Below, one piece after another: positions 20,271 through 52,578 of a DNA stretch of 64,000 bases (position 1 is its first letter; each line of letters starts with the position of its first letter). This DNA comes from an uncultured virus (IMG/VR IMGVR_UViG_3300043436_000696). Lineage: Duplodnaviria; Heunggongvirae; Uroviricota; Caudoviricetes. The notes beneath the pieces are model-generated. The model had not been told where the DNA came from. It ran no database searches and saw only the letters and a list, made by a program, of their open reading frames with translations. The translations under genes and the position numbers were made by a program. The stretch is taken from the IMG/VR virus record IMGVR_UViG_3300043436_000696. One strand, given 5' to 3'.

Positions 20271-20718
20271 CTTCTATATTATTTATTTGTTTAATGTGTT
20301 CTATTATCTTAAAATACTTCTCTCTAAAGATATCACAGGTTTCTATTAAGTTTTTGAAATTATTAATAGAATGTATCACCGTAGTATGATCCTTTCCGTT
20401 AAGGTATTCACCTATAGATTTAAGGGAATATCTCATATTTCTAGCTAAAAAGCAGAAAATAGACCTTAATTCCGTAAGTTCTCTAACACGTATCTTTTGC
20501 TTTAAATTTAATACTTTATTGTACCTAGTGGGTAAAAAGGGTGTAAAATAGGATTCCAAATGCTCTAGACTCATTAGAGGAGCTCGGTCAGATTGGTCTG
20601 TAATAAGGTTTACTTTGGTTAAAACTACTGGGTAGTACTCAAATTTGTTGAAAAAGTCTTCTTTAAACTTATCTATAAGTTTCTTTTCTAGACGTAGGGC
20701 ATAATCTTGTTGGTTCAT
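20227..20718 (-). CDS. DnaA C-terminal (domain IV) HTH protein
   Basis: R.I..FLAR...SLKSIGEYLNGKDHTTVIHSI, the DnaA_C signature. Confidence 0.8.
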   Translation of the reverse strand: MNQQDYALRLEKKLIDKFKEDFFNKFEYYPVVLTKVNLITDQSDRAPLMSLEHLESYFTPFLPTRYNKVLNLKQKIRVRELTELRSIFCFLARNMRYSLKSIGEYLNGKDHTTVIHSINNFKNLIETCDIFREKYFKIIEHIKQINNIEDGSPIMERLQEIQY

Positions 20719-20736
20719 ATATAGATTTTATGTTCA

Positions 20737-20744
20737 CAAATGTA
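20737..20744 (-). promoter_or_regulatory. Bacteroidota-type -7 promoter box (TACATTTG) heading the replication operon
   Basis: Matches TAnnTTTG 19 nt upstream of the ATG at 20718. The same box occurs at 40683-40690 (-); TAAATTTG at 33753-33760 (+); TAATTTTG at 12836-12843 (-). Confidence 0.65.
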
Positions 20745-20764
20745 GATAATTTCCTTAATATTTT

Positions 20765-20780
20765 GTATATTATATTGTAG
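20765..20780 (+). promoter_or_regulatory. Putative late promoter GTATATT-N4/5-TGTA
   Basis: GTATATTATATTGTAG. Near-identical copies precede the late block (47715-47730) and the scaffold/capsid operon (57984-58000). Confidence 0.55.
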
Positions 20781-20830
20781 GGTTTATAAAAATTCTACAT
20801 ATCCCAAGTTTATATTAAATCATTTATACT

Positions 20831-21112
20831 ATGGCTAATAAATTTTATGCCCAAAAAGATGCTTTAGGATTTCCTATTCCGGGAACTATGATGTCTGTAC
20901 CAGCTACAAGAAGTATTCCTAAAGATTCTGTATCAATTCCTGCTCAAAACGTTACAGCTGGAGCTGGGCAAGCAGTGGTTCCTCAACCATCAAGCTTGCG
21001 TTATTTTGTACGTAAAGATAGATCTGGTAACATTATTCCTAACTCATTGACTATCAGCTTAGAAAAGCCTCAAGGATCTGTATATGAGTTTAAATTGTTG
21101 AAAACAGTCTAA
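20831..21112 (+). CDS. Hypothetical (possibly structural) protein with internal duplication
   Basis: FYAQKDALGFPIPGTM and YFVRKDRSGNIIPNSL are repeats of one motif. Confidence 0.65.
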   Translation: MANKFYAQKDALGFPIPGTMMSVPATRSIPKDSVSIPAQNVTAGAGQAVVPQPSSLRYFVRKDRSGNIIPNSLTISLEKPQGSVYEFKLLKTV

Positions 21113-21124
21113 TCTTAACTAAAA

Positions 21125-21403
21125 ATGACTAAAGAAAATCCTTCTATAGCTGCTTTTAAGGTGTGGATATTCCCATCTTTAGTATCACTTGTTAGTCTTT
21201 TGATATGGAATGATGTCAATGAGATAAAAGCTGATGTTAAGCTTCTTATGGCTCAGTCTAATATAGACAAAACAAGGATTGACAATATAGAAAGACAGCT
21301 TTATAAAGCTGCTCCATCAGCTTCTATTCCGGCTATACCTGAAAAGGAACGTGAAATAGTATATGCTGTTTTACCTGATAACAAGATAAAATACACAAGA
21401 TGA
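21125..21403 (+). CDS. Single-TM coiled-coil protein (lysis cassette; holin/antiholin-like)
   Basis: One TM segment followed by heptad repeats. Confidence 0.5.
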   Translation: MTKENPSIAAFKVWIFPSLVSLVSLLIWNDVNEIKADVKLLMAQSNIDKTRIDNIERQLYKAAPSASIPAIPEKEREIVYAVLPDNKIKYTR

Positions 21404-21648
21404 ATTTTAAAGACTGGGTTTTAGATCTTTTTAAAGATGAGCGTGGTTCTACATCAATCAAACCTGTAGTAGGTTTTATGTGTGCATTATTCTTATGTGT
21501 AACATTAACTGCTAACAGTTTTAGTCATGGAGATATTAAACCTTCAGATGCTTTAGTAGAGTCTGTAATGTATATATGTATAGCAGCTTTATTAGGGGAT
21601 ACTGGAGATAAGTTCTCCCTAAAAAAGAAAAAAGATGAAATATCTTAG
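21400..21648 (+). CDS. Putative holin
   Basis: Two TM segments, DERGSTS.K motif, basic C-terminus; upstream of the endolysin. Confidence 0.6.
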   Translation: MNFKDWVLDLFKDERGSTSIKPVVGFMCALFLCVTLTANSFSHGDIKPSDALVESVMYICIAALLGDTGDKFSLKKKKDEIS

Positions 21649-22255
21649 TATAATTATAGTAATACTAGTTGTAGTATTATTTTTTCAACAAGGTGGATGT
21701 GGTTATGTAAACTTTGACGGTAAAAAATCAGATACAACAGTTGTTCATGATACTACTTGGTCTGTACATGATACTACCATTTATAAAACACTAACTTTAA
21801 AAGGTAAAGTGTTACATGATACAATTACCACTCCTCCAGAGTATATTGCTGATACAAACTATCCTAAGCTTTTAGCTCAGTATAATGATTTGTTAAAGAA
21901 ATATATGGCTCTTGTAGAGTTTAAGGATACTATTAGAATAGATACCCTTGGTTACGTAGCTATTACAGATACTGTTAACCAAAATAGTCTTAAAGGTAGA
22001 TCAGTAAGAACTAACTATAAGATTCCTACAATAACTAACACTGTTACTATACAACATTATGAAAAGCCTAAGACTCAAATGTTCTTTGGTGGTGGTATAA
22101 ACGGTAATCAAACTCTTGGAATTACAGGAGCAAGTGCCGGAGTATTATTAAAAAATAAAAAAGATCATATATATGGATTGAATATAGGTACTGAAATCAA
22201 TGGTCCTATTACTTATGGTATTCAATCTTATTGGAAGATAAAACTAAAAAAATAG
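21635..22255 (+). CDS. Putative spanin-like envelope protein
   Basis: Signal anchor, repeated DT(T/I) motifs, C-terminal beta strands ending YWKIKLKK, as in Bacteroidota phage lysis cassettes. Confidence 0.55.
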   Translation: MKYLSIIIVILVVVLFFQQGGCGYVNFDGKKSDTTVVHDTTWSVHDTTIYKTLTLKGKVLHDTITTPPEYIADTNYPKLLAQYNDLLKKYMALVEFKDTIRIDTLGYVAITDTVNQNSLKGRSVRTNYKIPTITNTVTIQHYEKPKTQMFFGGGINGNQTLGITGASAGVLLKNKKDHIYGLNIGTEINGPITYGIQSYWKIKLKK

Positions 22256-22256
22256 T

Positions 22257-22430
22257 ATGAAAAAAGTAATTGCATTTTTTAAGAGCTTATTTGCTGCACC
22301 TGCAAAACCAGTTGTAGCTCCTGCTCCAGTAGTAGAGGAAGCTCCTAAAGCTAAAAAAGAAGTAGTTGTTGCTGAAGAAGCAGCTCCTAAAAAGAAAAAA
22401 AGATATTACAAACCTAAAAATAAGGCTTAA
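22257..22430 (+). CDS. Small Ala/Pro/Lys-rich protein (57 aa)
   Basis: Hand-translated MKKVIAFFKSLFAAPAKPVV...KKKKRYYKPKNKA. Confidence 0.65.
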   Translation: MKKVIAFFKSLFAAPAKPVVAPAPVVEEAPKAKKEVVVAEEAAPKKKKRYYKPKNKA

Positions 22431-22432
22431 TT

Positions 22433-23050
22433 ATGGACTTATCTCGTTTAAAAGGACATGTTCCTGACACAGTTATTGCTCAGATTCCTTCTATACAAGA
22501 AAAGTTTGGTATCACTACTGCATTAAGACTTGCTCATTTCCTAGCTCAAGCTGGACATGAATCTGGTGGGTTTAGAGTTACACAAGAAAACCTTAACTAT
22601 TCAGCTAAAGGTCTTAAAGGAATTTTTGGTAAGTATTTTAGAAGACCTGATAGAACTTTTGATGAACCAAAGGTATTAGCTTATGCTAAAAAACCTGAGA
22701 AGATTGCAAATCTTGTTTATGGTGGTAGAATGGGTAATGGTCCTGAAGCATCAGGTGATGGTTATAAATTCAGAGGCCGTGGTTATATCCAGTTAACTGG
22801 TAAAGATAACTATACAGCATTTGGTAAATCTATTGGTGTAGATATGGCTGCTAATCCTGATTCAGTAGCTACAACTCACGCCTTATCTTCTGCAGCATGG
22901 TTCTGGTCTAAGAACAAACTTAATGAAATTGCTGATACAGGATCTTCTGATGAAGTAGTAACTAAGATTACTAAAAGAGTTAATGGTGGTACTATTGGCT
23001 TAGCCGATCGTATTAAGCATTTTAAAGAGTATCATACATTACTTGTTTAA
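22433..23050 (+). CDS. Glycoside hydrolase family 19 endolysin
   Basis: AHFLAQAGHESGGF, ENLNYS, FRGRGYIQLTGKDNY, SAAWFW, ITKRVNGG. Confidence 0.92.
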   Translation: MDLSRLKGHVPDTVIAQIPSIQEKFGITTALRLAHFLAQAGHESGGFRVTQENLNYSAKGLKGIFGKYFRRPDRTFDEPKVLAYAKKPEKIANLVYGGRMGNGPEASGDGYKFRGRGYIQLTGKDNYTAFGKSIGVDMAANPDSVATTHALSSAAWFWSKNKLNEIADTGSSDEVVTKITKRVNGGTIGLADRIKHFKEYHTLLV

Positions 23051-23066
23051 TTCTAAATAAATCAAA

Positions 23067-23198
23067 ATGGCTGTAAAGAAAGGTTCTAAATCTGACAACA
23101 GGAAAGTCTCTTTTGGTAAACGCAAAGGAGGAAAAGCTTCAAAAACATCTGGCCCTAAAGCTAAGAAAGTTAGTAAGTACAGAGGTCAGGGTAGATAA
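23067..23198 (+). CDS. Small very basic protein ending KYRGQGR (43 aa)
   Basis: Hand-translated MAVKKGSKSDNRKVSFGKRKGG...SKYRGQGR. Confidence 0.7.
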   Translation: MAVKKGSKSDNRKVSFGKRKGGKASKTSGPKAKKVSKYRGQGR

Positions 23199-23231
23199 TT
23201 TCTACCCTTTCTTTTTTTAAAAATTTATACT

Positions 23232-23861
23232 ATGTTAATATTAACTAGACTCCGAGAGTATTTACTTTACGGTTTTATGACCTTTGTAGGTGCATGGTTA
23301 CTTTTTGCTATAAGTTTTATGTTCTACTGTTTATTCTTAGAATTTACAGGAGGTCAAGAAAAACTTCAGCAAATGTCTAATGAGTTTTCTTGGAAGTTTG
23401 ATGGTACATTTAAAAACCATCCAGGAAACATTTGGTATGAAGAACCTAAGACAATTGCTATAGGAATGATTACTAACAAGATCCAGATTGGAAACTTAGC
23501 GGGTAATAGAAAACTAGAGTTTGGTATAAAGAATGTCTTAGAAGAAGTGTATCAAGCTGAGGGCTATGATTTAGATCACGCTTCTGACAATGTTTTAAAG
23601 GTTGATATAGTATATCTAGATGTATTAAAAACACAATCTAGCTTTTCTATAGTACATAATAACAAGGAATCTGTAGTTATCAGACTACAAGGATTCTTAT
23701 ATAAAGGTGATAAGCTCGTTAAAAAAGTTCTTGTAGAAGAATCTGCAGATGAGATATCAATGTCCACTCTTCTTATAGATGAGGGAGGTAAATTTAACAA
23801 TCAAAATTTATCTACTGCTATTAAAAAAGCATGTAGTTCACTTGTAAAGAAACTTAATTAA
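23232..23861 (+). CDS. Membrane-anchored CsgG/HfaB-like protein
   Basis: N-terminal TM helix; alpha/beta domain whose ends resemble 27540..28253 (KLEFGIKNVLEE vs RVGLGVANISME; KFNNQNLSTAIKKA vs KFNQSTISISTKKA). Confidence 0.5.
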   Translation: MLILTRLREYLLYGFMTFVGAWLLFAISFMFYCLFLEFTGGQEKLQQMSNEFSWKFDGTFKNHPGNIWYEEPKTIAIGMITNKIQIGNLAGNRKLEFGIKNVLEEVYQAEGYDLDHASDNVLKVDIVYLDVLKTQSSFSIVHNNKESVVIRLQGFLYKGDKLVKKVLVEESADEISMSTLLIDEGGKFNNQNLSTAIKKACSSLVKKLN

Positions 23862-25966
23862 TGAAGAAACTATTATTTTTTCTTACACTTTTATTTGTTA
23901 TTCAAGCATCTGCTCAACAGAAGTTTAAAGCTGCTGTTTTAGTTGGTGGTCCATCTCTTAATAGAGGTGGTGAGTTTGACTATGTAATTTATGGTAATGG
24001 TATGAACAATGCTACTACTCGTCAATTACTATTTGATTTACAATATGATAGAAACAATTTTGAGATTGTATCTGTAAATCATACTGGTACAGGAGGTAAT
24101 GGTGGTATTCTTCCTCAAGGTTCTAATATTAATCTTGCTTATTACGACTATCCTGGGTATAATTTTCTTACAGTAAGCTCAGGATCTAGTGCTAATACCA
24201 CAACTAACGGTACTACTAACTATCAATATGCACAGTACAACTATAGTAATACTAATCCTTATGCTATATTAAGAGTTACTCTTACTTGGTCTACTAATTC
24301 AGCTATGCCTTATAATGGTTATAGTGATTTTATCAAAATTAAGTTTAGACTTAAAGCTGCTTCTACAGCATATACTTTTAATCCAATTAAGTTGAACTTT
24401 GTAGCTGGCTGGACAGCTTCAGGTGCTTATGATGCTACTACAATGGAAGCTCCGTTAACTACAGCTGTAGCTATGAACCAAAACTTTGGTAAATATGTGA
24501 CAGCTAAGGTAGATTTAAACTCTAACTTATTTAATGTTTCTAATCTTAGAGTATCTTTTAGAGATACTGTAGCAAATACAGGCGTTTTATTCCCTGTAAC
24601 TTCTACAGGAGATGTAGATGTAAATCAATCTCAGCTAGCTGCTAATAAAGTTTATGAAGTTAGTTTAATGCATGACATGGATAAATTATATACTATCTAT
24701 GGTAATGCAATCACTATATCAGATTTTACTACAGCTCAGAATGAATTTACTTCAATGGGACTGGATGGATCAAATGGTCAGAATTTAAAAACTGGACAGT
24801 CACTGTATGCTGCTGACATTAACAGAAACCAAAAGATAGATGGAGGTGATTTACCTAGACTACTAGGTCAAGTAGCTAATATAGATACATTAACAAAACT
24901 TCCTAGTACTTATGTTACCGGTAGTGGTGGATATATGGCTATTCCTACATGGAATGCAGCTGAAATACGTACACTTGCTGGTCAAGTTGAATGGGTATAT
25001 GTCAATGTTGGAACATCAAATAGTACTTTGTATGTTGATATGAGAAAGTTTCCTAGTGGAACTGTGGCTAGTACTTTAAAAAGTATACAATTATTTGATG
25101 TATACACTGGACCTATAGAATATATAACAGAAGATGCTGCTTGGGCTCAATATAGAATTCCTACTACTATACCAAAAGCTGTAGATGGTAGTTCACTATA
25201 CTCTGTATATATAAGAAAGAATAATAATGATTACATGTTCCAAGCTGAACCTAGTTTTAATACTTCTGTAAATAGTTCATGGGGAGCTATAAATACTACT
25301 AACTGGAAGAATATAACATATCCTAGAACTTATTTGACTACAGGAACTCTTGGTACAAATGCTGTTTTGGATCTTAAATATCTTTTATGGGGTGATGTAA
25401 ATAGATCTCACTCTTCTCAGGTTGTAACTGTTTCTAGTGGATCTTCTACTGTACAAACTAATGCTGTTAATAGTTTACAAACTAACACTGCATTTAGAAA
25501 CATGTCTACACTATCTACAGGAGGATTTATTAACACTCCATATGATGTAAGTTCTGTAGATGTAAACTTAACTAACTTAACTGTTACAAGTAACACTATA
25601 GAAATACCTGTAGGTTTAGACACTAAAGGTTTAAATGTATCTGGTTTACAATTTGAGTTTACATATGATCCTAATAAAATTAAATTTGAAGAGCTTGTTC
25701 CTACACTTCCTGCTACTTGGTACATTTTTGCAAATGATAATAATGGCAGAGTTAAATTTGGAGCATTAGATCAAAATAAATCAGTTGCTTTATCTGGTGT
25801 AAGTATACCATTCAAACTTAAGTTTAGCACAATTGGTGAAGGTGTAAATATTATTACATCTGTAAAAGTATCAACTCTTATGGATGCTAGTGATGCTAAA
25901 GGTAATCAATTAGGTATTAATCTAAATTCTACACAAATTAAATTAACCGGTTATAACAACTTTTAG
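23861..25966 (+). CDS. Secreted cohesin/dockerin-domain protein
   Basis: Signal peptide (..QASA/Q). N-terminal cohesin-like LFDLQYD domain; dockerin Ca-loops AADINRNQKIDGGDL and GDVNRS; C-terminal cohesin-like IEIPV...SGLQFEFTYDPNKIKF. Confidence 0.7.
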   Translation: MKKLLFFLTLLFVIQASAQQKFKAAVLVGGPSLNRGGEFDYVIYGNGMNNATTRQLLFDLQYDRNNFEIVSVNHTGTGGNGGILPQGSNINLAYYDYPGYNFLTVSSGSSANTTTNGTTNYQYAQYNYSNTNPYAILRVTLTWSTNSAMPYNGYSDFIKIKFRLKAASTAYTFNPIKLNFVAGWTASGAYDATTMEAPLTTAVAMNQNFGKYVTAKVDLNSNLFNVSNLRVSFRDTVANTGVLFPVTSTGDVDVNQSQLAANKVYEVSLMHDMDKLYTIYGNAITISDFTTAQNEFTSMGLDGSNGQNLKTGQSLYAADINRNQKIDGGDLPRLLGQVANIDTLTKLPSTYVTGSGGYMAIPTWNAAEIRTLAGQVEWVYVNVGTSNSTLYVDMRKFPSGTVASTLKSIQLFDVYTGPIEYITEDAAWAQYRIPTTIPKAVDGSSLYSVYIRKNNNDYMFQAEPSFNTSVNSSWGAINTTNWKNITYPRTYLTTGTLGTNAVLDLKYLLWGDVNRSHSSQVVTVSSGSSTVQTNAVNSLQTNTAFRNMSTLSTGGFINTPYDVSSVDVNLTNLTVTSNTIEIPVGLDTKGLNVSGLQFEFTYDPNKIKFEELVPTLPATWYIFANDNNGRVKFGALDQNKSVALSGVSIPFKLKFSTIGEGVNIITSVKVSTLMDASDAKGNQLGINLNSTQIKLTGYNNF

Positions 25967-25967
25967 A

Positions 25968-26339
25968 ATGAATAAATTAGAAAAATTATTAAACTTAGGA
26001 TTTTTGCTAACTATTGTAGTTGCAAGTTGTAGAAAAGTAGAACCTGTACCTTTTCAAACAATTGATTTAGGTAAACAATCTACATCTACAAGTATTAAAT
26101 CTATTGTACAGAATGGTACTACAGTCACTGCAGAGTTTGCAACAACTCCAGGAGCTAAGTATTCTGTACAGATAATCCCATTTGGTTCAGAAGAGCCTGC
26201 TAAGAAAGAAGGGTTTACAGCTAAAGATAGTTTAACTGTTAAATCTTATAGCTTAGTTGATTTACCTAAAAAACACTATGATTTTATATTCATAGATATT
26301 AGCGGTAAAGAAGTAAAGTTTCCTATATTAATTAAATAA
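25968..26339 (+). CDS. Lipoprotein
   Basis: Lipobox VASC followed by an Ig-like beta-rich domain. Confidence 0.7.
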   Translation: MNKLEKLLNLGFLLTIVVASCRKVEPVPFQTIDLGKQSTSTSIKSIVQNGTTVTAEFATTPGAKYSVQIIPFGSEEPAKKEGFTAKDSLTVKSYSLVDLPKKHYDFIFIDISGKEVKFPILIK

Positions 26340-26358
26340 ACTATAAAAAACATACATT

Positions 26359-26664
26359 ATGTCAGAAGAAGTAGAACAAGAATCAACTGGTAAGTCCTTT
26401 AAAGGGATTCTTATCACTTTAGTAAGTACCGTTACACTAGGTGTAGGTGGTTTTGTTACTAATAAATTAACAGGTGGCGGTGATGAGAAAGAAACTCCTG
26501 CCGCTGCAGCTCCAGTTATTAATATTACCAACTCTAACCAGCAAGCTGCTGCTAGTGGTGGTAAAACTGTTATTATTAAGGAGAAAGAAGTTGCGGCTAA
26601 ACCTGCTGCTCCTGTTAAAAAGAAAGAAGGAGACGAGTTTAAAGAAGAAGCTCCTAAATGGTAA
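26359..26664 (+). CDS. Single-TM protein with low-complexity tail
   Basis: TM ILITLVSTVTLGVGGFV, then A/P/K/E-rich segment. Confidence 0.65.
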   Translation: MSEEVEQESTGKSFKGILITLVSTVTLGVGGFVTNKLTGGGDEKETPAAAAPVINITNSNQQAAASGGKTVIIKEKEVAAKPAAPVKKKEGDEFKEEAPKW

Positions 26665-26691
26665 TATATTATTAAGAATTAAAAAGTTTTC

Positions 26692-27300
26692 ATGGAAGAT
26701 AAAAAACAACCAGAAGCTGGTGGGTTCAAGGAACTCCTAGGCTCAATGATGAGAAGACGCTGGTTTATTACAGCGTTAGTATTAGGATCATTTATGATGA
26801 TCATTGTAGCTATTTTTATAGCTGTATCTAATAATGCCTCTATGGCTGGAGAATGGAAAGAGTTATTAATGTTATTATTAGGAGCTTTTATTGGCTCTTA
26901 CGGTAAGATTATTGATTATTGGTTCTCTGATACAGATAAAGATAAGATGCTTGTACAGAAGATGGATGAGGAAGATGGTGTTACTCTTTCTCATACTAAT
27001 GATATGAAAGAGTCTAATAAACCATATGCTCCAACTATTCCTGATGCATTTGTTAAAGCTGCAGAGCGTGCTTCTGATTTAGCTGTTACTGAAAACAAAC
27101 AAAAGTTTGAGCTTGCTAAAGATGAACAAGAACATCGTCAAGTTTTAGAAGTTGATCAGCAAGAACATAAGCAAGAGATGGAAAAATTAGAGTTCCTGCA
27201 TCATGAGCACAAACAGTGTGTGCATGAATGGGGTGATACTGATGGTGATGGAGATTTAGAATGTATCCATTGCGGCAGAATCAAGGATGAGCATTGTTAA
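26692..27300 (+). CDS. Two-TM membrane protein with coiled tail and C-terminal metal-binding motif
   Basis: Two TMs, IIDYWFSD (holin-like), C-terminal CVHEWGDTDGDGDLECIHCG. Confidence 0.7.
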   Translation: MEDKKQPEAGGFKELLGSMMRRRWFITALVLGSFMMIIVAIFIAVSNNASMAGEWKELLMLLLGAFIGSYGKIIDYWFSDTDKDKMLVQKMDEEDGVTLSHTNDMKESNKPYAPTIPDAFVKAAERASDLAVTENKQKFELAKDEQEHRQVLEVDQQEHKQEMEKLEFLHHEHKQCVHEWGDTDGDGDLECIHCGRIKDEHC

Positions 27301-27324
27301 CTTAATTAAATACTATGGATTCTG

Positions 27325-27543
27325 ATGACCAAAAGACAGAGAATAAAAATACTTCGTTCCTCACGGGATGTCAGCTTAATGGCAGCAATGTTCTTTCTGC
27401 CTTTAGGCTACGATCTGTTGTTCAAGACGCTCTTAGATTACACTGGGAGCTTTTGGGCTACAGATATCATATTCTATTGTCTATCCGGAGTGTTTTGGCT
27501 ATCATACTTCTTGCTGTCCAGATCTTTAAAAACTAAGTCATGA
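27325..27543 (+). CDS. Small two-TM membrane protein
   Basis: Two hydrophobic segments; ATGA overlap with the next gene. Confidence 0.6.
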   Translation: MTKRQRIKILRSSRDVSLMAAMFFLPLGYDLLFKTLLDYTGSFWATDIIFYCLSGVFWLSYFLLSRSLKTKS

Positions 27544-28253
27544 AATACTTTATAATATTAGCTTGTTTACTATTTACTATTAACGGGAGTGCACAGATTG
27601 CATCTACTAAAACAGAAAACTATAAAGCTTCTTTTGAGAAGGCTATAGATATTTCTGATTTTTTAGACTATGATGGGCCACAAATACCTATACAGATATT
27701 GAAGTGTGGTATATCAGATGAAATGTATGAGATGTATCCTGAGCTTAAAGAAAAGCGTGTAGGTCTTGGTGTAGCCAATATCTCTATGGAATATTTAGAG
27801 AATCTTAATAGATTCAAATTTACAGAGGATAAAACAGAGATTAAAAATCGTATGGTGAAGCAGTTTCAGGCTTCTCAAGCAGGTATCTCTGAGAATAAGT
27901 TAGATGGTCGTGGTAAGATTAATCTTGCTAAATACTTTGTAACAATTGAATGTTATGATTATAGTATATCAGAAGATGAAAGTGTTAGCCTTAAAGATGG
28001 TACAAAACAACTTATGGTTACGAGGATTGGTTTACAAGTTAGATTCACTGATGCTGAAACTGGTGTGGTTTTTTCTGGTTCTGGACTTGGTGAGGCAAAG
28101 ACTACTAAAGAGACTTCAGGTTTATCTGATGCGGCTTTAGATCCAGTTAAGTTCAATCAATCTACTATTAGTATTTCTACTAAGAAAGCATTAGATATAG
28201 CTTGTGCTCGTATCCTAGATCGTATGATTAAGAAAGGTATATTTACTAAATAA
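27540..28253 (+). CDS. CsgG-like (curli secretion channel family) protein
   Basis: Signal peptide; LGVANI..EYL..LNRFKFTE, AKYFV...YDYS, RIGLQVRFTDAETG...GSGLGEA, C-terminal KKALD.A helix. Confidence 0.7.
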   Translation: MKYFIILACLLFTINGSAQIASTKTENYKASFEKAIDISDFLDYDGPQIPIQILKCGISDEMYEMYPELKEKRVGLGVANISMEYLENLNRFKFTEDKTEIKNRMVKQFQASQAGISENKLDGRGKINLAKYFVTIECYDYSISEDESVSLKDGTKQLMVTRIGLQVRFTDAETGVVFSGSGLGEAKTTKETSGLSDAALDPVKFNQSTISISTKKALDIACARILDRMIKKGIFTK

Positions 28254-28261
28254 TTATTATT

Positions 28262-28369
28262 ATGGCAAACGCTAAGAAAAAGAAGAGAGCTATGAGATCA
28301 ATTAGATCTGGAGTTAAAACTGCAGCTTTAATTAAATCTAATCTAGTCATCTTAAATAAGTTAAAGTGA
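28262..28369 (+). CDS. Small basic protein (35 aa)
   Basis: Hand-translated MANAKKKKRAMRSIRSGVKTAALIKSNLVILNKLK. Confidence 0.5.
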   Translation: MANAKKKKRAMRSIRSGVKTAALIKSNLVILNKLK

Positions 28370-29626
28370 TTGAAAAAGTTTATATTTGCTGTAATTTTAG
28401 TAGTATTACTACCATTGTATGCGTATAACCAAACTCTTATACAGACGTTCACGGACCCTTGTACTAAAGTTGTCAGTACGTTTAGCATTCCTATTACTGG
28501 TAGTACTGTTATTGTGTTTTATAATAAGTCTAGGACTTTTACTGCCGCTGATATATCTTCTGGTGCATTTCAGACTTGGCTTAATCAGGTATATGAAGAT
28601 TATCGTAGACTATCTCCCTGTTCTGTCGCTCAGACTGCACAAACTAGCACTCAAGTTACAGCCAATGCTGTGTCTGCTGCAGTAGGTGCTGCTGTAAGTT
28701 CAGCTACATCATCTGCTGCTTCAAGTGCAGCTTCTTCTGCCGCTTCTGCAGCTGCAGCATCTTCCGCTCCTCCACCTACTAGTAGCTCTGCCCCTAGTTC
28801 AAGCAATTCTCAAGGATCAAGCTCGGAGTCTAGTAGCAGCAGCTCTAGTAGTTCATCAGAATCTAAATCTGAATCTAAGAGTGAAAGTAGTTCTGAATCT
28901 AAATCAGAAGAAAAATCAGAGTCTAAGTCTGAATCTAAATCTGAAAAAAAGTCTGAGTCTAAAAAGGATTCTAAATCCTCTAACAAGTCTCAGGCTAAAA
29001 TGAATCCTATTTTATTTAATTCTGATCTCACTGCAGGTCAGAATGTTGACGCTAGTATAGCGTTGGTACTTAGCGGGGGAATATCTCAGTCTTCTATGAC
29101 TGGAGCTTCTTCTTGGGGTGTAAGTGCTATGGTATGGAGTAATCTAAAACAGTTTGTACTGTCTTCTAGATATACTAAAATGAATTTCAATGGAGGGAAG
29201 TTAGAGTCTATATCTAACTATGGTTTTACTACAGCTTATATGTTTGGAAACTTATCTAGTTTCTTGACATATGCTTATATCTACCCTATGGGTAAATGGG
29301 GTGTTACGGGTGCTAACTATACATTGGCTTTTAGTAAGGATAATGTAATGCACAATCTTCTACTCTTCTACACTAAGCCCTTTTCTATTAATAGAAGGCT
29401 AAATCTATCTCCTGAGCTTTATGTCTCAGGGAGTCCTGTTATGTATATGTTTGATACAAAGGACTTTGTTATATCCGAGGATATGGGTTTTATCACTGGT
29501 GTGTCCGGTGATTATTCTTTTACTAAACGTTTTAAATTAAACATAGGGTTGAGGACTAGTCTTTCAACTAATCCTCAGGTTCCTATGTTACTTTTTATGG
29601 TAGTAGGTTCTAAAATTAATCTTTAG
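28370..29626 (+). CDS. Outer-membrane beta-barrel-like protein with Ser/Ala- and ESKS-rich linker
   Basis: Signal peptide, small N-domain with two Cys, about 100-aa low-complexity linker, C-terminal amphipathic strands. Confidence 0.65.
   Translation: MKKFIFAVILVVLLPLYAYNQTLIQTFTDPCTKVVSTFSIPITGSTVIVFYNKSRTFTAADISSGAFQTWLNQVYEDYRRLSPCSVAQTAQTSTQVTANAVSAAVGAAVSSATSSAASSAASSAASAAAASSAPPPTSSSAPSSSNSQGSSSESSSSSSSSSSESKSESKSESSSESKSEEKSESKSESKSEKKSESKKDSKSSNKSQAKMNPILFNSDLTAGQNVDASIALVLSGGISQSSMTGASSWGVSAMVWSNLKQFVLSSRYTKMNFNGGKLESISNYGFTTAYMFGNLSSFLTYAYIYPMGKWGVTGANYTLAFSKDNVMHNLLLFYTKPFSINRRLNLSPELYVSGSPVMYMFDTKDFVISEDMGFITGVSGDYSFTKRFKLNIGLRTSLSTNPQVPMLLFMVVGSKINL
28672..28990 (+). repeat. Low-complexity coding repeat (SSAA and SESK units)
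   Basis: Degenerate tandem TCTGAATCTAAA-like units within the CDS. Confidence 0.7.
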
Positions 29627-31134
29627 TATTTACCTTTTGAATCTACATTAAATATTCTTGAACCATCAAACACTACTGCTTGACCAGCTTCAGAATACTT
29701 TTTCATAGTTTCTTTATTAAAGTGGTCAAATCTTGCTCCTTTAACGCCTATAAAGAAAGCTTTTTCTGAATAGCTATGACAGCTATCTTCAGCATCTGTA
29801 ATAACTAATGCATTATCAGGATGTCTCTTGATATGATCTACTACTACATTAATTGATGTTCCACCACTGGTTCCTAAGTTTGCTATTGAAAACAGATCAG
29901 TCTTAAGTTCTTTAACATTATTGTTAAATACATAGATCTTATTTAGCATACCTAAGTCTTGCATTTTAAGAGCAAATGCTTTACAGAAATCTAGCTTATC
30001 TATTCTTGTACCATCAACAGTTCCTACGCCACAACTGTCTGACATTGAACCAGATATATCAATATAGATATTAATTTTACCTATAGCTTTAGTATCCTTA
30101 ATCATAATGTCTTCAATCATGAACTTTCTTAGCTGTGGATGCAAGAACATATACTCATCTAATCCTGCTATATTATCAGAGTTAAATAAGTCTTCTTGAA
30201 TGGTTTCTTTCTTAGCAGAAAAGTAGTTCTTGGACTTATCCATTAACTTCTTAATTTTATCTTTAAGACTACCCATAGACATATTTATTCTTCTAATATC
30301 TGCAGCCACTTGATTTATATAATCAGGACTTAACTTGCCAGCATTTGTACCTTCTTTGATGTTATTAAACATATCATCTTGAAGGTCTTGTGGAATTGCA
30401 TCATCCATTGCTTTACAAGTATTTTGAGCATCTTGTATGGCGTCATCCATCATATTTTTAGATAATCTATTATCAAGCATCTTATTCATAAGATCATCAA
30501 TATTTTGATTACCAAACTCTGAATCACCATTAAGACCTTGCATCAACTCATTAGCTGCATTTGGATCTATATATTCCATCATAGTCATCTGCATAATGTA
30601 ATATTGCATTAGATTTCTAGTAAAGATTGCTGACTTAAGACTACTTGTCTCTGTCATAATCTTACCTACTGGATTATTAGAACGTTCTAAAAACTTATAC
30701 TGTGTATAGTTTTTATCTGTACGCTGTTCAAATTCTAGTTTATCCATCTTATGATAGAACATCTTAAAGATATCATTCTTTAAATGCGTTGGAAACTTTT
30801 TGTAAGTTTCTGACATCTTTTTTTGAAATGCTTGCCAGTCAGGCTTTTGATCATCTTGTAAGGCTATAAATCCTGCACTTTTTGCAAATCTTTGATAATA
30901 TTTATTAGTATTATTAGGATCATTTATATGACTATCAACCACTGTTTTTAGTCTACTTTCATCTATATAATGCATGTGAGGTTTAATAAGGTCACCTTTC
31001 TTATAGAAATTTAGCTTACCAAATAAACCTTCTGAGTCTTTATAGTGAGACTGTATCTCCCCTTTCTTTACTTTCTCTAGGATAGTATAAACATTTTTAT
31101 ACTGCTTTCCTGTACTAAGGCTTCTTAGTGCCAT
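29623..31134 (-). CDS. von Willebrand factor A (vWA) domain protein
   Basis: MIDAS DISGSM, GGT, VITDAED. Confidence 0.85.
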   Translation of the reverse strand: MALRSLSTGKQYKNVYTILEKVKKGEIQSHYKDSEGLFGKLNFYKKGDLIKPHMHYIDESRLKTVVDSHINDPNNTNKYYQRFAKSAGFIALQDDQKPDWQAFQKKMSETYKKFPTHLKNDIFKMFYHKMDKLEFEQRTDKNYTQYKFLERSNNPVGKIMTETSSLKSAIFTRNLMQYYIMQMTMMEYIDPNAANELMQGLNGDSEFGNQNIDDLMNKMLDNRLSKNMMDDAIQDAQNTCKAMDDAIPQDLQDDMFNNIKEGTNAGKLSPDYINQVAADIRRINMSMGSLKDKIKKLMDKSKNYFSAKKETIQEDLFNSDNIAGLDEYMFLHPQLRKFMIEDIMIKDTKAIGKINIYIDISGSMSDSCGVGTVDGTRIDKLDFCKAFALKMQDLGMLNKIYVFNNNVKELKTDLFSIANLGTSGGTSINVVVDHIKRHPDNALVITDAEDSCHSYSEKAFFIGVKGARFDHFNKETMKKYSEAGQAVVFDGSRIFNVDSKGKY

Positions 31135-31160
31135 TTTATTTTTATTTAAGAGTTATAAAT

Positions 31161-31191
31161 AAACTCCCCGATAGTATTCTATCAGGGAGCT
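31161..31191 (-). terminator. Hairpin between MoxR and vWA genes
   Basis: CTCCCCGATAG-tatt-CTATCAGGGAG imperfect stem. Confidence 0.5.
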
Positions 31192-31207
31192 ATTATAATT
31201 TTATAAC

Positions 31208-32374
31208 TTAGAAAGGATTACTTGCTGAAATTGTAGAAGTAATCATAGCATCATTTACTATAGTTACTTGTTCTTGTTCAGCCATTATAGATTCAAAGTC
31301 TTCAGTTACTTGAGTTTCTCTAGCTGGATGATTCTGTAGAATATATTGCATTGATAATTCAATTTCTTCTACTTGACCTTCATCCATAATACCACGAGAA
31401 GTATAAGTATTAATTAATCCTTCAATCTCAGCAATAGCTAGTTCTAACTGCTCATTAGAGCTATGAGAATGTAACATCTCTACCTTAGACATAACCGCCT
31501 TGATTTCTGGACTCATCAACTTATTCTGTAATTCTGAACCTGCAGACTGTGAAATCATAATCTGAGCTGTTTTTACAAGAGCCTTATCAAGGCTGATATC
31601 CCAGATATAACTAACTGCTTTTGTCAAACTAGGTACAAAAGTTAAGGTACGATCTGAGCTATGCTGATAACCTACTTCTAAATACTTTTCTAATTTATTT
31701 GGTGGTACTTCTAAACCATCAATTTCTTGCTTGTTAGGTACACCAATAGAAAACTTCTCTCTATAATTACGAGCACCTTTGCTAAAATATTTAGCTAATT
31801 CACCTGCAGATACACGGTTAACGGTCATCTTTAACATGAAACGGTCCCAGAATGGAGATCCAATTTCATCTTTAGGAATTTCATTACATGTAGCTACAAA
31901 TAACTTCCACTTACATGGAATCTTGTGCTTACCGTTAAATAAGAACTTCTCGTTCATTACACCTAACATTGCATTTCTGATACCAGAGCTAGCTTTGTCA
32001 ACCTCGTTAATGATAACTATCTCTGCATCTGCAATTGGTGTATTAAGTTCATACTTATTGTCTGTAAATAACTTACCTAAGTCAGGCATACCTTTAATCT
32101 CTGATGCTTTAGTACCTTCGTCTGTCTCCAAGATATAGATCTTGTTGGCAAAGTCTTCTGGTGTCATGTTACCATCTCTATTTAACCATGCTTTAGCATA
32201 GTCAATAATAGTTTTGGTTTTAGCTACTCCCGGTTGACCTACAAGAAGACATGGTAATCCTGTAGATTCTGCTAACGCTAGCATTTTAAACACTTCTTCT
32301 TTATTAATTAAAGAGGTGTCAATTGTTCTTACTTCCTGAGTAGATTTCTTTGTAATAGATTTTACTTTAGACAT
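31208..32374 (-). CDS. MoxR/RavA-like AAA+ ATPase (frame open upstream to 32803)
   Basis: GQPGVAKT Walker A, IINEVDKA, RNAML..MNE, ATCN, FWDRF. A-rich leader before MSKVKS. Confidence 0.85.
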   Translation of the reverse strand: MSKVKSITKKSTQEVRTIDTSLINKEEVFKMLALAESTGLPCLLVGQPGVAKTKTIIDYAKAWLNRDGNMTPEDFANKIYILETDEGTKASEIKGMPDLGKLFTDNKYELNTPIADAEIVIINEVDKASSGIRNAMLGVMNEKFLFNGKHKIPCKWKLFVATCNEIPKDEIGSPFWDRFMLKMTVNRVSAGELAKYFSKGARNYREKFSIGVPNKQEIDGLEVPPNKLEKYLEVGYQHSSDRTLTFVPSLTKAVSYIWDISLDKALVKTAQIMISQSAGSELQNKLMSPEIKAVMSKVEMLHSHSSNEQLELAIAEIEGLINTYTSRGIMDEGQVEEIELSMQYILQNHPARETQVTEDFESIMAEQEQVTIVNDAMITSTISASNPF

Positions 32375-32576
32375 GTTATTTTGTTTGTATTTAAATGATT
32401 GTTGAGCATTTGTATTAATGCTAGTATTTATTGATGGAGTAGGTCTAGTATAAGCTCTAACCCAACGTTTTACGCCTGAATGTGTAGGTTTTACTTCCCA
32501 TGTATTACCATCGTTACCTATCATTTGACGTCCTACAGGAAACTGTGTAGCACTCATAGTAGGACTAGGTCTTAGA

Positions 32577-33002
32577 TTAGAGACTGGCAAAGGCTGAGAG
32601 CTCTGAGTCTGTTGTTGCATAGACTTCCGCTGTTCTTGTTGTAACATTTGTGTCACTGTCTGTAGGTAAGCTTGCTTCTCTTTGCTCCCCATTATTAAAT
32701 CCTTGCTCAATCTTAGGTAAGCTTCCCATATTGAGTGCATCTGAAGAGTTGTTAACTCCACTGGTGATTGTTCCTGCATTAGTTTGCTCTTTAGTGTCAT
32801 CAATGATTGTAAATACTGTTACGCTTGTCTCAGCATCTTTTAATGCCGGATGCTTTCTGATGGTCATAATCTGAACATCTTTTGCATTATACTTTTCTTG
32901 GATAGAACCATAACCTAAGTCATCTTTCTTTAACCAAGTTAGACCGTTGTTTAGGTCTTCTAAAATTTGGCTCACGTAGAGCTCAACTTTGTTTACTGCC
33001 AT
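32577..33002 (-). CDS. Hypothetical protein
   Basis: 141-aa ORF; its 3' half overlaps the MoxR upstream frame. Confidence 0.65.
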   Translation of the reverse strand: MAVNKVELYVSQILEDLNNGLTWLKKDDLGYGSIQEKYNAKDVQIMTIRKHPALKDAETSVTVFTIIDDTKEQTNAGTITSGVNNSSDALNMGSLPKIEQGFNNGEQREASLPTDSDTNVTTRTAEVYATTDSELSAFASL

Positions 33003-39175: not shown

Positions 39176-39229
39176 ATAAGGTTGGTTTTAAAATAAAAAA
39201 GGCCTATGTATAAACATAGACCAGTTTAG

Positions 39230-52478: not shown

Positions 52479-52578
52479 TGTAGGGTGGTGAAACTGGCAG
52501 ACACGCTACCTTGTCTCGGTAGTGTTTAGTTTTGTAAATAAAAAACTAGATATGGAGGTTCAAATCCTTCCCCTACAG
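52479..52578 (+). tRNA. Atypical tRNA, anticodon GTC (Asp-reading) on a Leu/Ser-like class II body
   Basis: TGTAGGG/CCCTACA acceptor + G73; D region GTGGTGAAACTGGCAGACAC; CTACC-TTGTCTC-GGTAG; 31-nt variable arm; GGAGG-TTCAAAT-CCTTC T-arm. Confidence 0.8.

Follow-up and report, generated by a model that had tools for sequence, protein, structure and literature searches.

What would a tailed phage do with a compact row of genes whose products all appear to be bound for the cell envelope, placed shortly after its endolysin gene? The question is raised by an uncultured member of the Caudoviricetes (IMG/VR record IMGVR_UViG_3300043436_000696), of which a stretch of 64,000 nucleotides, here called the window, was analysed. 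An earlier note, made from the letters of the DNA, had described the row as a single module for assembly at the outer envelope.

Layout and conservation of the gene block

Eight tightly packed plus-strand ORFs occupy positions 23232-29626, as the earlier note had placed them, and all eight are conserved in IMG/VR relatives, so that the block can be regarded as real. Intergenic gaps range from -4 to +27 nt, except for 116 nt before the last gene (28370-29626), and start and stop codons overlap at 23861 and at 27540-27543. Seven of the products had been credited with export or membrane signals; the signals are there, but the count is too low, as an N-terminal signal peptide, lipobox or TM helix can be read in all eight (a hydropathy scan also flags five of them).

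Co-occurrence was assessed in 80 loci anchored on the CsgG-like gene, 51 of them informative (at least 9 kb of sequence upstream and 2.5 kb downstream). The LptE-like domain is encoded in all 51, the small bitopic membrane protein (26359-26664) and the barrel protein (28370-29626) in 50 each, and the cohesin protein (23861-25966) in 49; all four lie jointly beside the anchor in 47 of the 51. Together with the CsgG-fold protein they constitute a five-gene core, whose order is likewise maintained in 47 loci, and gene order persists even in relatives that carry the endolysin elsewhere or on the opposite strand. Synteny across related contigs, along with recurrence of the core in the cultured phage described below, supports the earlier view of one dedicated envelope gene set. 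Other content varies by clade: the lipoprotein (25968-26339) is found in 36 of the 51 loci and a 72-aa protein (27325-27543) in 27. Diverged clades have a gene for an 82-aa holin-like protein and a Lipase_3 (class-3 lipase) gene (1.1e-27) inside the module, and one locus, L074, has additional lectin, lipase, barrel and lipoprotein genes; a 765-aa cohesin-like protein of this locus has a C-type lectin domain.

The CsgG-fold protein

The most conserved member of the module (median identity 85%, versus about 57% for its neighbours) is a secreted, non-lipidated protein of 237 aa encoded at 27540-28253. As had been proposed, it is CsgG-like: its fold is that of CsgG, and it is a member of the CsgG family in the wider sense. 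A Pfam search with the window protein itself gave no direct match; the homology is transitive, by way of a profile that recovered 237 representatives, and among 35 distant homologues scanned, a chosen subset of these, 12 pass the Pfam CsgG cut-off. With the AF2 model (pLDDT 83.4) as query, Foldseek ranks CsgG first (E 4.5e-7), and VIA-align superimposes 182 residues on CsgG at Z 12.8 and rmsd 3.6, clearly above PelC (Z 9.5) and LptE (Z about 8.4); 173-194 residues align against the eight CsgG chains listed. The neighbourhoods of distant cellular homologues are unrelated and give no functional clue.

Modelled in four copies, the protein is predicted to form a head-to-tail oligomer in which every copy contacts two neighbours through two different faces, in line with the homo-oligomer envisaged earlier. 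The score is 0.68 (runs 0.67, 0.68 and 0.75), against 0.00 for the best control, and the runs have at least 93% of contacts in common, with partner pLDDT of at least 76. In calibration, 20 of 30 proteins whose solved structure is a pair of one chain reached the mark, as did 1 of 23 solved as single chains; these counts apply only roughly here, as four copies and an alignment made for this analysis were used. The score may also echo the model's memory of solved CsgG nonamers. A lipobox Cys is present in most of the distant cellular homologues and in 0 of 17 aligned phage sequences; the segments that might correspond to membrane hairpins (about residues 142-160 and 186-209) read as polar or acidic on both faces, with D146 and E147 invariant.

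The membrane-anchored LptE/YajG-fold protein

The first gene of the module (23232-23861) encodes a bitopic protein of 209 aa, with a TM helix at about residues 18-36, where hydropathy peaks. The juxtamembrane segment is conserved, and a periplasmic domain of LptE/YajG fold follows (residues about 74-208; nt 23451-23855). The protein had been taken for a second CsgG-like paralogue with a TM anchor; the anchor stands, and the CsgG identity is rejected on the matches to Pfam Lipoprotein_16 and on the Foldseek result. Of 20 family members, 19 match Lipoprotein_16 (PF03923) at E<=0.05 (best 1.7e-6); the copy in the window scores 20.2 bits, short of the curated cut-off of 25. The family also weakly matches the E. 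coli YajG model PRK11627 (E 0.025), and Foldseek with the AF2 model (pLDDT 76) places LptE and its relatives on top (E about 7e-7). The LptE/YajG fold and CsgG share one broad fold class. The two parts, TM piece and LptE-like domain, are encoded by separate genes in diverged clades.

The cohesin-domain protein

The secreted 701-aa product of 23861-25966 starts with a signal peptide and a beta-rich N-terminal region. A short loop follows, then the motif GDVNRSHSSQ at residues 511-520, which is conserved, and a Ser/Thr linker leads to the cohesin domain at the C-terminus (residues 578-668; nt 25592-25864). Two cohesins and dockerin-type calcium loops had been described in it. One cohesin is borne out by Pfam (E 1e-5; 26.2 bits against a cut-off of 24.1) and is matched in all 16 relatives (best 6.5e-10), the closest solved cohesin by sequence reaching only E 0.088. 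A second is unsupported, as the N-terminal region has no homology to the C-terminal cohesin detectable by hhalign (probability 0.6%). One loop, DINRNQKIDGGDL (residues 319-331; nt 24815-24853), has key positions that are invariant among relatives and agrees with the dockerin/EF-hand calcium-loop pattern. A true dockerin is likewise unsupported, with this single loop and a Dockerin_1 match in 1 of 16 relatives (E 0.031), and GDVNRS, conserved as it is, falls short of a complete calcium loop. The protein has no type IX sorting domain (0 of 16 relatives), and it may remain periplasmic.

The probable barrel and the smaller envelope proteins

The last gene (28370-29626) begins with TTG where relatives have ATG at the identical place. 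In its 418-aa product, a signal peptide precedes an N-domain of some 65 aa in which two Cys residues (C31 and C84) are conserved. A linker, Ser/Ala-rich at first and then Lys/Ser/Glu-rich (residues about 88-205; nt 28631-28984), connects the N-domain to the C-terminal domain, which is about 214 aa long (nt 28982-29623). Of the barrel on a Ser-rich stalk noted earlier, the Ser-rich stretch is confirmed and differs in length among relatives; the C-terminal domain is probably an outer-membrane beta-barrel, as weak leads suggest. Its Pfam matches are to membrane barrels only (DUF5777 in 2 of 19 and Phenol_MetA_deg in 1 of 19), every one of the closest ESM Atlas clusters that bear a name is an outer-membrane barrel (score 0.93), and the protein is homologous to a stand-alone secreted protein of 297 aa whose last residue is F (hhalign 95.8%, E 6.6e-9).

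Four smaller products complete the module. The lipoprotein (25968-26339; 123 aa) has a lipobox ending at Cys21 and a mature part that forms a small beta-rich domain; each of the 16 relatives compared retains this Cys, which is also invariant in 21 aligned sequences, in agreement with the earlier assignment. The resemblance of the lipoprotein to the C-terminal domain of type IX secretion is weak and can serve as a lead only (hhalign probability 25%, E 7.7e-4). The 101-aa bitopic protein (26359-26664) has an acidic N-terminus, a TM helix at residues 16-34 by hydropathy, a low-complexity tail and a terminal W. An inner-membrane protein of 202 aa (26692-27300), found in 46 of the 51 loci, has a strong TM segment (residues 25-43; hydropathy 2.76), a second hydrophobic stretch that is very conserved, and a Cys-rich tail of CxxC type. 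The small hydrophobic protein of 72 aa (27325-27543) overlaps the CsgG-fold gene by 4 nt; the alternative frame 27315-27536 was rejected (median identity in relatives 52%, versus 76%). Diverged clades have at this position a 76-aa protein homologous to the N-terminal TM piece of the LptE/YajG-fold protein.

Recurrence in Flavobacterium phage immuto

The module core is also carried by a cultured and unrelated myovirus, Flavobacterium phage vB_FspM_immuto. The window terminase and major capsid protein, searched in the immuto genome, found nothing, while the CsgG-like protein, as positive control, was matched. Immuto gp017 shares 54% identity with the CsgG-like protein across 99% of its length; hhalign relates gp016 to the small bitopic protein 26359-26664 (99.0%, E 2.5e-18), gp018 to the N-domain of the barrel protein (98.9%, E 1e-17) and gp019 to the LptE-like domain (93.5%, E 2.4e-7). 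The fifth core member, gp015, has both a Cohesin domain (5.9e-9) and a Por_Secre_tail domain (2.4e-8), each above cut-off, the latter being the type IX sorting domain PF18962 (34.6 bits against 27), and gp013 is a Lectin_C protein (3e-15). No homologue of 26692-27300 was found in immuto. In the ESM Atlas, a related viral cluster takes its automatic name from the type IX sorting domain; this is a lead only. Because of the sorting domain of gp015 and the lectin domains in two lineages (immuto gp013 and L074), a surface destination of module products is plausible.

Relation to the lysis genes

Upstream of the module, on the same strand, lies a presumed lysis cassette (21125-23050) for a 92-aa TM protein, an 82-aa holin-like protein with two TM helices, a 206-aa signal-anchored or lipoprotein-like protein, a 57-aa protein and a GH19 endolysin (22433-23050; Pfam Glyco_hydro_19 1.3e-11; phrog_181 6.5e-73). 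Except for the endolysin, these proteins had no family match, and their features are read from the sequence. A small basic ORF of 43 aa (23067-23198, plus strand; also a sequence reading) lies outside the module, between it and the endolysin, and is followed by a terminator-like hairpin and T-run (23188-23218, plus strand; 8-bp stem with 4 G-C pairs, 5-nt loop) that ends 14 nt 5' of the ATG of the first module gene. Relatives likewise have the C-terminal KYRGQG of this ORF, and the hairpin after it, ahead of their first module gene. When the 70 nt preceding that gene are folded, 25 of 33 distinct relatives reach -10 kcal/mol or below with altered stems (raw fold energies, with no shuffle baseline), and a T-run is present in 4 of the 33. 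A consensus scan of 20500-30000 gave 7 terminator-like sites, against 3.7 +/- 2.0 in shuffles. Since a terminator-like hairpin separates the two, co-transcription of the module with the endolysin, as once assumed, is doubtful. Expression late in infection, also assumed, is called into question by the same division into units and by the position of the module in immuto, among replication genes.

Comparison with known systems

The curli secretion channel CsgG of Enterobacteria (PDB 4uv2, 4uv3 and 6l7a; PF03783) is the best structural match to the 27540-28253 product, which is linked to it through the Pfam-passing representatives and through the modelled head-to-tail oligomer. The phage protein differs in being phage-borne, in a Bacteroidota host, in having a type I signal peptide in place of a lipid anchor, in lacking lipid-facing hairpins (as read) and in having no CsgA, B, E or F partners. 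The nearest architectural analogy for how the module may work is offered by PelC-PelB (PDB 5t10 and 9h80) and LptE-LptD (PDB 4q35 and 5iv9), in which periplasmic lipoproteins ring or plug an outer-membrane barrel: these entries are matched by both module proteins of the fold class, and the module encodes a probable barrel. Unlike PelC and LptE, neither phage protein is a lipoprotein (one has a TM anchor and the other is soluble); no homology of the barrel protein to PelB or LptD was detected, and the window module is without polysaccharide or LPS genes. YajG is similar to the 23232-23861 family through the Lipoprotein_16 matches, qualified by the score of the window copy, and differs in its lipid anchor, for which the phage family has a TM anchor or, in other clades, a cleavable signal; to our knowledge, the function of YajG itself is not known.

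With the cellulosome (PF00963, PF00404) the module shares the cohesin of the 701-aa protein and of gp015, and the one invariant loop; it differs in having no two-repeat dockerin domain and no glycoside hydrolases, and in its Bacteroidota phage context. Bacteroidota type IX cargo resembles gp015 in its sorting domain, which is absent from the window cohesin protein, and the window lipoprotein is only weakly similar.

Possible roles of the module

Tentatively, and at a confidence a little short of even, we regard the gene set as a mobile, phage-borne cell-envelope or surface-display module of Bacteroidota phages, which is neither a curli system nor part of the core lysis cassette. A role as an accessory lysis device, which would weaken or breach the outer membrane by a non-spanin route once the endolysin has cut the wall, seems unlikely. 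In such a device the LptE mimic and the CsgG-like ring might disturb the host's outer-membrane assembly machines, or the inner-membrane-anchored protein might bridge both membranes together with the lipoprotein and barrel. It would suit the place of the module in the window clade, directly after the holin-like and endolysin genes, the endolysin in the same locus of 40 of the 51 informative relatives, the holin-like and Lipase_3 genes within the module of diverged clades, and the several small membrane proteins, as in lysis cassettes. Against it stand the conserved hairpin, terminator-like in the window, and the immuto core, whose neighbours are genes for ribonucleotide reductase and nucleases, with the endolysin about 8 kb away; moreover, cohesin, C-type lectin and type IX sorting domains typify surface proteins and not known lysis proteins, and the model of 23232-23861 is an alpha/beta domain, not an i-spanin coiled coil.

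A true secretion pore, with the CsgG-like protein as an outer-membrane channel exporting the cohesin protein or another polymer, is improbable. The Z score, the Pfam-passing homologues and the modelled oligomer speak for it, as does the 701-aa protein, which, having no type IX sorting domain, would need another exit route; with no lipid anchor and with polar would-be hairpins, however, the phage protein is unlikely to make a membrane pore. Curlin-repeat, CsgE and CsgF families were not found by Pfam among the module proteins, in keeping with the earlier remark that, for want of a CsgA gene, the cargo would not be curli. We give just as little credence to a set of independent accessory genes, such as exclusion lipoproteins or outer-membrane proteins, each acting alone and gathered at a permissive insertion site. 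The clade-specific content (lipoprotein, 72-aa protein and the extras of L074) would fit this; the ordered core in 47 loci, its presence in unrelated immuto and the overlapping start/stop junctions do not.

Gene content, folds, export signals, joint occurrence and mobility are observed, and the oligomer is modelled; the association of different members, their topology, the cargo, the timing and the purpose are proposed. As a surface-display module, the gene set would probably build an outer-membrane structure in the infected cell. All products would leave the cytoplasm through Sec, and the barrel would insert into the outer membrane. The CsgG-fold protein would form a periplasmic ring beneath it, with the LptE-fold domain as adaptor or plug, like PelC under PelB or LptE in LptD, and the inner-membrane proteins would tether the complex to the inner membrane. 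Phages are known to encode envelope proteins for masking receptors or excluding other phages, an example being the Llp lipoprotein of T5. Proteins of this type are also exported phage gene products that alter the host surface and are dispensable for virion structure; they are single small proteins, in contrast to a multi-gene module with a five-gene core, and we know of no report of its fold classes in receptor masking or exclusion. By exporting or anchoring the cohesin and lectin proteins, the complex might coat or remodel the surface of the infected cell, and its likely purposes would be the masking of receptors against adsorption of further phages, or the making of a sticky cell.

Organization of the envelope module and its phage

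Eight closely abutting plus-strand open reading frames occupy positions 23232-29626 and encode, in order, proteins of 209, 701, 123, 101, 202, 72, 237 and 418 amino acids, an arrangement that bears out the gene layout of the earlier note. The first two genes have one base in common at 23861, a 4-nucleotide overlap lies at 27540-27543, the other gaps are 1-27 nucleotides, and 116 nucleotides precede the last gene. Every one of the eight was found by tblastn against 132 viral loci, with the 237-residue protein the most conserved (median identity 85%, compared with about 57% for its neighbors); where small frames overlap, 27325-27543 is the conserved one (median identity 76% vs 52% for the alternative frame). 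The 209-residue protein has a transmembrane anchor, the 701-, 237- and 418-residue proteins have signal peptides, the 101-, 202- and 72-residue proteins have transmembrane helices, and the 123-residue protein carries a lipobox whose cysteine is retained in all 16 relatives printed and is invariant across 21 aligned sequences. From these N-terminal features, read from sequence, together with a hydropathy scan that flags five of the eight proteins, all eight products are predicted to be envelope-directed; the earlier note had recognized export signals in seven.

The DNA is that of a phage, with a G+C content of about 0.33 and PHROGs matches to a DNA polymerase, primase, DnaB-like helicase, Sak4-like annealing protein, large terminase, portal and major head protein. 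The terminase matched 128 phage records, all at less than 60% identity (the 15 listed are about 25% identical), and by first organism word these were uncultured (43), Bacteroides (30), Flavobacterium (29) and Cellulophaga (9), the best-ranked being crAss-like phages and Flavobacterium phage FpV4. Close copies of the region occur in metagenome-assembled genome (MAG) bins named Sediminibacterium, Flavobacterium and "Bacteroidetes". Because of these terminase relatives and MAG bins, the host very probably belongs to the Bacteroidota. The predicted signal peptides stop just before a glutamine (e.g., ...SAQ/Q), and signal peptide cleavage before glutamine is typical of that phylum. The contigs that carry the IMG/VR relatives measure about 100-130 kb.

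Among 50,697 phage records, searched with DNA and with protein queries, there was no match for the region 20000-32000, for the 701- and 209-residue proteins or for the barrel domain of the 418-residue protein, and an NCBIfam scan of the module proteins returned nothing near any cut-off. No RNA runs with the region were found; three freshwater runs of one study contained 0.05 of its words each. Bacteroidota and phage polymerases recognize promoters other than the sigma-70 type, and a sigma-70 scan was uninformative (34 sites vs 42 ± 8 in shuffled sequence).

Several other features of this genome deserve mention. On the minus strand, 20227-20718 encodes a 163-residue protein with a DnaA C-terminal helix-turn-helix (PF08299, 2.5e-13), divergent from the plus-strand block. 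A full-length tmRNA gene is present at 39227-39579 (minus strand; Rfam RF00023, 91.2 bits vs a gathering threshold of 47, E 3.9e-34) and is also called, with its tag peptide, by ARAGORN. Just upstream of the terminase gene, 100 nucleotides at 52479-52578 (plus strand) match the Rfam tRNA model at 41.2 bits with no ARAGORN call, and may be a tRNA with an insertion.

A CsgG-fold protein that is unlikely to serve curli

The 237-residue protein (27540-28253) has no direct match in PHROGs or Pfam, including CsgG at E ≤ 0.1, and its homology to the CsgG family (PF03783) is therefore transitive. Searched against 1.84 billion proteins, a profile of 17 phage sequences reached 237 representatives at E ≤ 1e-3. 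When 35 mostly full-length matches, selected by us, were scanned with Pfam, 12 passed the CsgG cut-off (best 63.7 bits) and five more had E ≤ 0.01; caspase domains occur in three of the distant homologues scanned, and a protein kinase in one. Around distant homologues of the CsgG family, in MAGs assigned to Ignavibacteriales, KSB1, Fibrobacterota and other groups, the neighboring genes are unrelated: they encode a caspase-domain protein or a CHASE2 cyclase, or are housekeeping genes. A PDB profile search with the family gave no relevant match.

Structure prediction covered this protein, the 209-residue protein and one complex, the homo-oligomer of the 237-residue protein. The AlphaFold2 model, built on a 40-sequence alignment (pLDDT 83.4, pTM 0.75), retrieved CsgG entries first by Foldseek (E 4.5e-7, TM about 0.5), and VIA-align also placed CsgG first (Z 12.8, rmsd 3.6 over 182 residues), with lower Z scores for Cj1090c (10.7), PelC (9.5) and LptE (about 8.4). 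Its best match in a viral structure library was a protein of an uncultured phage automatically named CsgG. The CsgG fold suggested by the earlier note is thus upheld by Foldseek, VIA-align and transitive Pfam matches.

In other respects the protein departs from the curli channel. The lipobox cysteine of CsgG is not conserved in the 17 aligned phage sequences, although most distant cellular homologues have ...GC or ...AC at this point, and the segments that would correspond to the membrane hairpins (residues ~142-160 and ~186-209) appear, as judged by reading the sequence, polar or acidic on both faces. No Pfam match at E ≤ 0.1 to the curli partners CsgE and CsgF or to the curlin repeats of CsgA/B was found among the 14 proteins of 20831-29626, in line with the earlier note's failure to see a curlin gene. 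Curli assembly was rejected as an interpretation on these grounds.

Four copies of residues 20-237 were modeled with a score of 0.68 (runs of 0.67, 0.68 and 0.75), whereas the best control scored 0.00; contact agreement between runs was at least 93% and partner pLDDT at least 76. The copies are arranged head-to-tail, each meeting two neighbors through two distinct faces in a ring-like manner. In calibration, 20 of 30 proteins with structures solved as one-chain pairs attained the mark used, as did 1 of 23 solved as single chains; these figures apply here just roughly because four copies and a custom alignment were used. CsgG nonamers have already been solved, and for that reason the score could reflect the model's memory of them; the homo-oligomer that the earlier note suggested modeling is obtained in the model, with this reservation. 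Since the putative membrane-crossing stretches are polar or acidic, we infer that the protein, instead of making a pore, would assemble as a soluble ring in the periplasm.

An LptE/YajG-like protein

The earlier note had proposed two CsgG paralogues. The second candidate, the 209-residue protein (23232-23861), instead resembles the LptE/YajG lipoproteins by both Pfam and Foldseek. Lipoprotein_16 (PF03923, the YajG family) is matched at E ≤ 0.05 by 19 of the 20 members of this protein's family (best 1.7e-6), although the window copy itself falls below the cut-off. In the AlphaFold2 model (pLDDT 76) a long helix at the N-terminus leads into an alpha/beta domain of the fold common to these lipoproteins, and the top Foldseek matches of the model are the LptE structures 3bf2, 4nhr and 5iv8_D (E about 7e-7, probability 1.0, 139-151 columns), with further matches to HpaA, PelC, FlgT and GNA1162; profile searches of PDB with the family gave no relevant match. 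The lipid anchor of LptE and YajG is absent: the window copy has a transmembrane helix at residues 18-36, and diverged clades have a cleavable signal without cysteine. Nor was homology to LptD, the partner of LptE, detected in the barrel protein of the module. The 209- and 237-residue proteins share a broad fold class; evidence of a paralogous relationship between them is suggestive only (BLASTP E 0.066; hhalign probability 12-14%, with a C-terminal helix motif as the sole overlap).

The domain structure of this gene varies. In diverged clades the LptE-like domain is a gene of its own with a cleavable signal peptide, and the transmembrane piece is a separate 76-residue gene immediately upstream of the CsgG-like gene. 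Window gene 23232-23861 thus corresponds to two genes (9644-9874 and 611-1174) in L074, a locus of one such clade, through gene fusion or fission.

The cohesin and barrel proteins

For the 701-residue protein (23861-25966) the earlier note described two cohesins and a dockerin, of which one C-terminal cohesin is clearly supported. The Cohesin family (PF00963) matches at 26.2 bits against a cut-off of 24.1, and is found in all 16 relatives examined (best 6.5e-10); a profile of this domain reached a cellulosomal cohesin in PDB at an E of only 0.088. The N-terminal 186 residues have just a short motif in common with the cohesin domain (hhalign probability 0.6%), and neither their profile, which matched no cohesin, nor that of the whole family had a relevant PDB match. 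A loop at residues 319-331, invariant at key positions, fits the dockerin calcium-loop pattern, but the tandem calcium repeats of a dockerin (PF00404) are absent: there is this one loop only, the second motif described (GDVNRSHSSQ) lies 190 residues from it and lacks the acidic position 12, and among 16 relatives a single one matches Dockerin_1, at E 0.031. In the ESM Atlas the clusters closest to the protein, which serve as leads only, are viral with cohesin annotations, and in one cluster dockerin. The sorting domain of type IX cargo (PF18962/TIGR04183) occurs in none of the 16 relatives, and NCBIfam gave no match to it.

Alignment of the 418-residue family (28370-29626) reveals, after the signal peptide, a small domain (about 65 residues) in which two cysteines are conserved, a linker of variable length that is Ser/Ala-rich and then Lys/Ser/Glu-rich, and, at the C-terminus, a conserved domain of some 214 residues. 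This last domain is likely an outer-membrane barrel. Pfam scans of 19 C-domains matched membrane barrels only (DUF5777 in two, best 2.1e-4; Phenol_MetA_deg in one), the nearest named ESM Atlas clusters to the protein are all outer-membrane barrels (score 0.93), and the domain is homologous to a stand-alone, Phe-terminated secreted protein of 297 residues in L074 (95.8%, E 6.6e-9). The homologue in the cultured Flavobacterium phage vB_FspM_immuto (hereafter immuto) is likewise Phe-terminated. A PDB profile search with the barrel domain gave nothing relevant. One Bacteroidetes MAG has, on a contig of 254 kb (L136), matches to the N-part (8719-9279) and to the C-part (12068-12325) of the barrel protein that follow the CsgG-like gene, spaced about 3.6 kb from each other; should both belong to one gene, it would have about 1,200 codons with a far longer middle.

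Conservation and mobility of the core

The CsgG-like protein is encoded in 515 viral contig stretches, and a profile of the first module gene (23232-23861) reaches 4664 proteins. Among the best 80 of the 515 matches, taken as loci anchored on the CsgG-like gene, 51 extend at least 9 kb upstream and at least 2.5 kb downstream and were counted. The LptE-like domain is present in all 51, the 101-residue and barrel proteins in 50 each and the cohesin protein in 49, with all four together in 47; this is the kind of co-occurrence for which the earlier note asked. The 202-residue protein (46 of 51), the endolysin (40), the lipoprotein (36) and the 72-residue protein (27) are less constant. As the loci are related to one another, these counts are not independent events, and stronger evidence for the core comes from the 160-kb immuto, of which four records were matched. 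Its gene products comprise a C-type lectin protein (gp013, 3e-15), a 363-residue secreted protein (gp014), a cohesin protein with a type IX sorting domain (gp015; both domains above cut-off, the latter at 34.6 bits vs 27), and homologues of the 101-residue protein (gp016, 99.0%), the CsgG-like protein (gp017, 54% identity), the N-domain of the barrel protein (gp018, 98.9%) and the LptE-like domain (gp019, 93.5%). In the same genome the window's terminase, capsid protein, 202-residue protein and holin-like protein found no match, whereas the CsgG-like protein, as positive control, did. Because immuto has the core, yet lacks matches to the window terminase and capsid protein, the core moves as one unit between unrelated phages.

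An enlarged module is found in a diverged clade (L074, 1-14500; also L054 and L048). It encodes a pair of cohesin-like proteins, of which one has a C-type lectin domain (1.1e-5), and a barrel-like protein that stands alone and ends in F. Also encoded are two lipoproteins, a class-3 lipase (1.1e-27), a FeoA-like protein and another secreted protein of 283 residues; genes for a PfkB sugar kinase and a cytidylyltransferase come next.

Flanking genes and the boundary with lysis functions

Upstream of the endolysin, a presumed lysis cassette at 21125-22430 (plus strand) encodes a transmembrane protein, an 82-residue holin-like protein with two transmembrane helices (median identity 89%) and a 206-residue signal-anchored protein, none of which has a PHROGs or Pfam match. 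Between the GH19 endolysin and the module that follows it lie an ORF for a basic 43-residue product and a hairpin bearing a T-run, which ends 14 nucleotides upstream of the first module gene. At this site a hairpin of ≤ -10 kcal/mol is present in 25 of 33 distinct relatives, with differing stems (raw folding energies), and the T-run in 4 of 33. The very basic ORF (23067-23198, plus strand) has its stop codon within the conserved hairpin, and relatives retain its KYRGQG end along with a hairpin; the whole segment (23067-23218) might act as a regulatory boundary that separates the endolysin unit from the module. Co-transcription behind the endolysin, as the earlier note had it, is not borne out, given the intervening hairpin and the position of the immuto core some 8 kb from that phage's endolysin, among ribonucleotide reductase and nuclease genes.

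Convergent to the module, 29623-32803 (minus strand) encodes a MoxR-type AAA ATPase (Pfam bpMoxR, 2e-22) and a 503-residue protein whose DISGSM motif reads like a vWA metal site, with no Pfam vWA match. The position of this pair is kept in the closest clade only.

Possible functions of the module

We tentatively favor, at somewhat less than an even chance, an outer-membrane-associated complex that would export or anchor the cohesin and lectin proteins and thereby remodel the surface of the infected cell. Its parts would be the barrel, a CsgG-fold ring, the LptE-fold adaptor and inner-membrane partners, for which PelC-PelB and LptE-LptD are working analogies. An accessory role in outer-membrane lysis is less likely but retains some probability: diverged clades do place a holin-like gene and the class-3 lipase inside the module, and the window module follows the endolysin, but the hairpin separates the two units, and in immuto the core is remote from the endolysin. 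Resemblance to a two-component spanin is also wanting, as the periplasmic part of the 209-residue protein is modeled as alpha/beta rather than as a coiled coil, and the adjacency of spanin genes is broken by the 701-residue gene, which separates the lipoprotein gene from the 209-residue gene. Quite improbable, despite the fold, is a true CsgG-type pore, against which stand the polar or acidic character of the putative membrane-crossing stretches and the unconserved lipobox cysteine. Equally improbable is that unrelated accessory genes merely lie side by side, considering their joint presence in immuto. Whatever probability remains falls to explanations outside of these.

A more specific form of the favored complex, which we regard as doubtful, is a portable phage apparatus for display or export. 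Here a non-lipidated CsgG-fold ring and LptE-fold adaptor on the Ser-stalked barrel would, together with the host type IX system, bring cohesins and lectins to the surface, and the host surface would be rebuilt.

Phage genes that alter the host surface usually encode single lipoproteins or outer-membrane proteins. The component folds and such single surface proteins are already known; it is their multi-gene mobile combination that appears to be new. No publication joining "crAss-like" phages with CsgG was found, and the literature on phages with cohesin, dockerin, barrel or type IX secretion, in the portions available, describes no such module; that on phage immuto, as available in part, concerns other topics. 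Phage "csgG" figures among the virulence genes counted in one study of marine viromes, which in its available portion does not analyze it further (PMC7003362). Such annotations probably denote modules of the present kind, not curli.

What emerges is an envelope module of multiple genes, whose core of five is conserved throughout a freshwater phage group of very high abundance. It joins fold classes familiar from the outer-membrane export machines of bacteria with domains for surface assembly and glycan binding. A cultured phage-host pair, immuto and Flavobacterium sp. LMO8, has the core, and the role of the module is therefore directly testable. If the portable apparatus exists as outlined, it would be a phage envelope machine of a previously undescribed kind, by which the host surface would be rebuilt, for example with a glycan-binding coat that blocks further adsorption or that glues infected cells to particles or to their neighbors.
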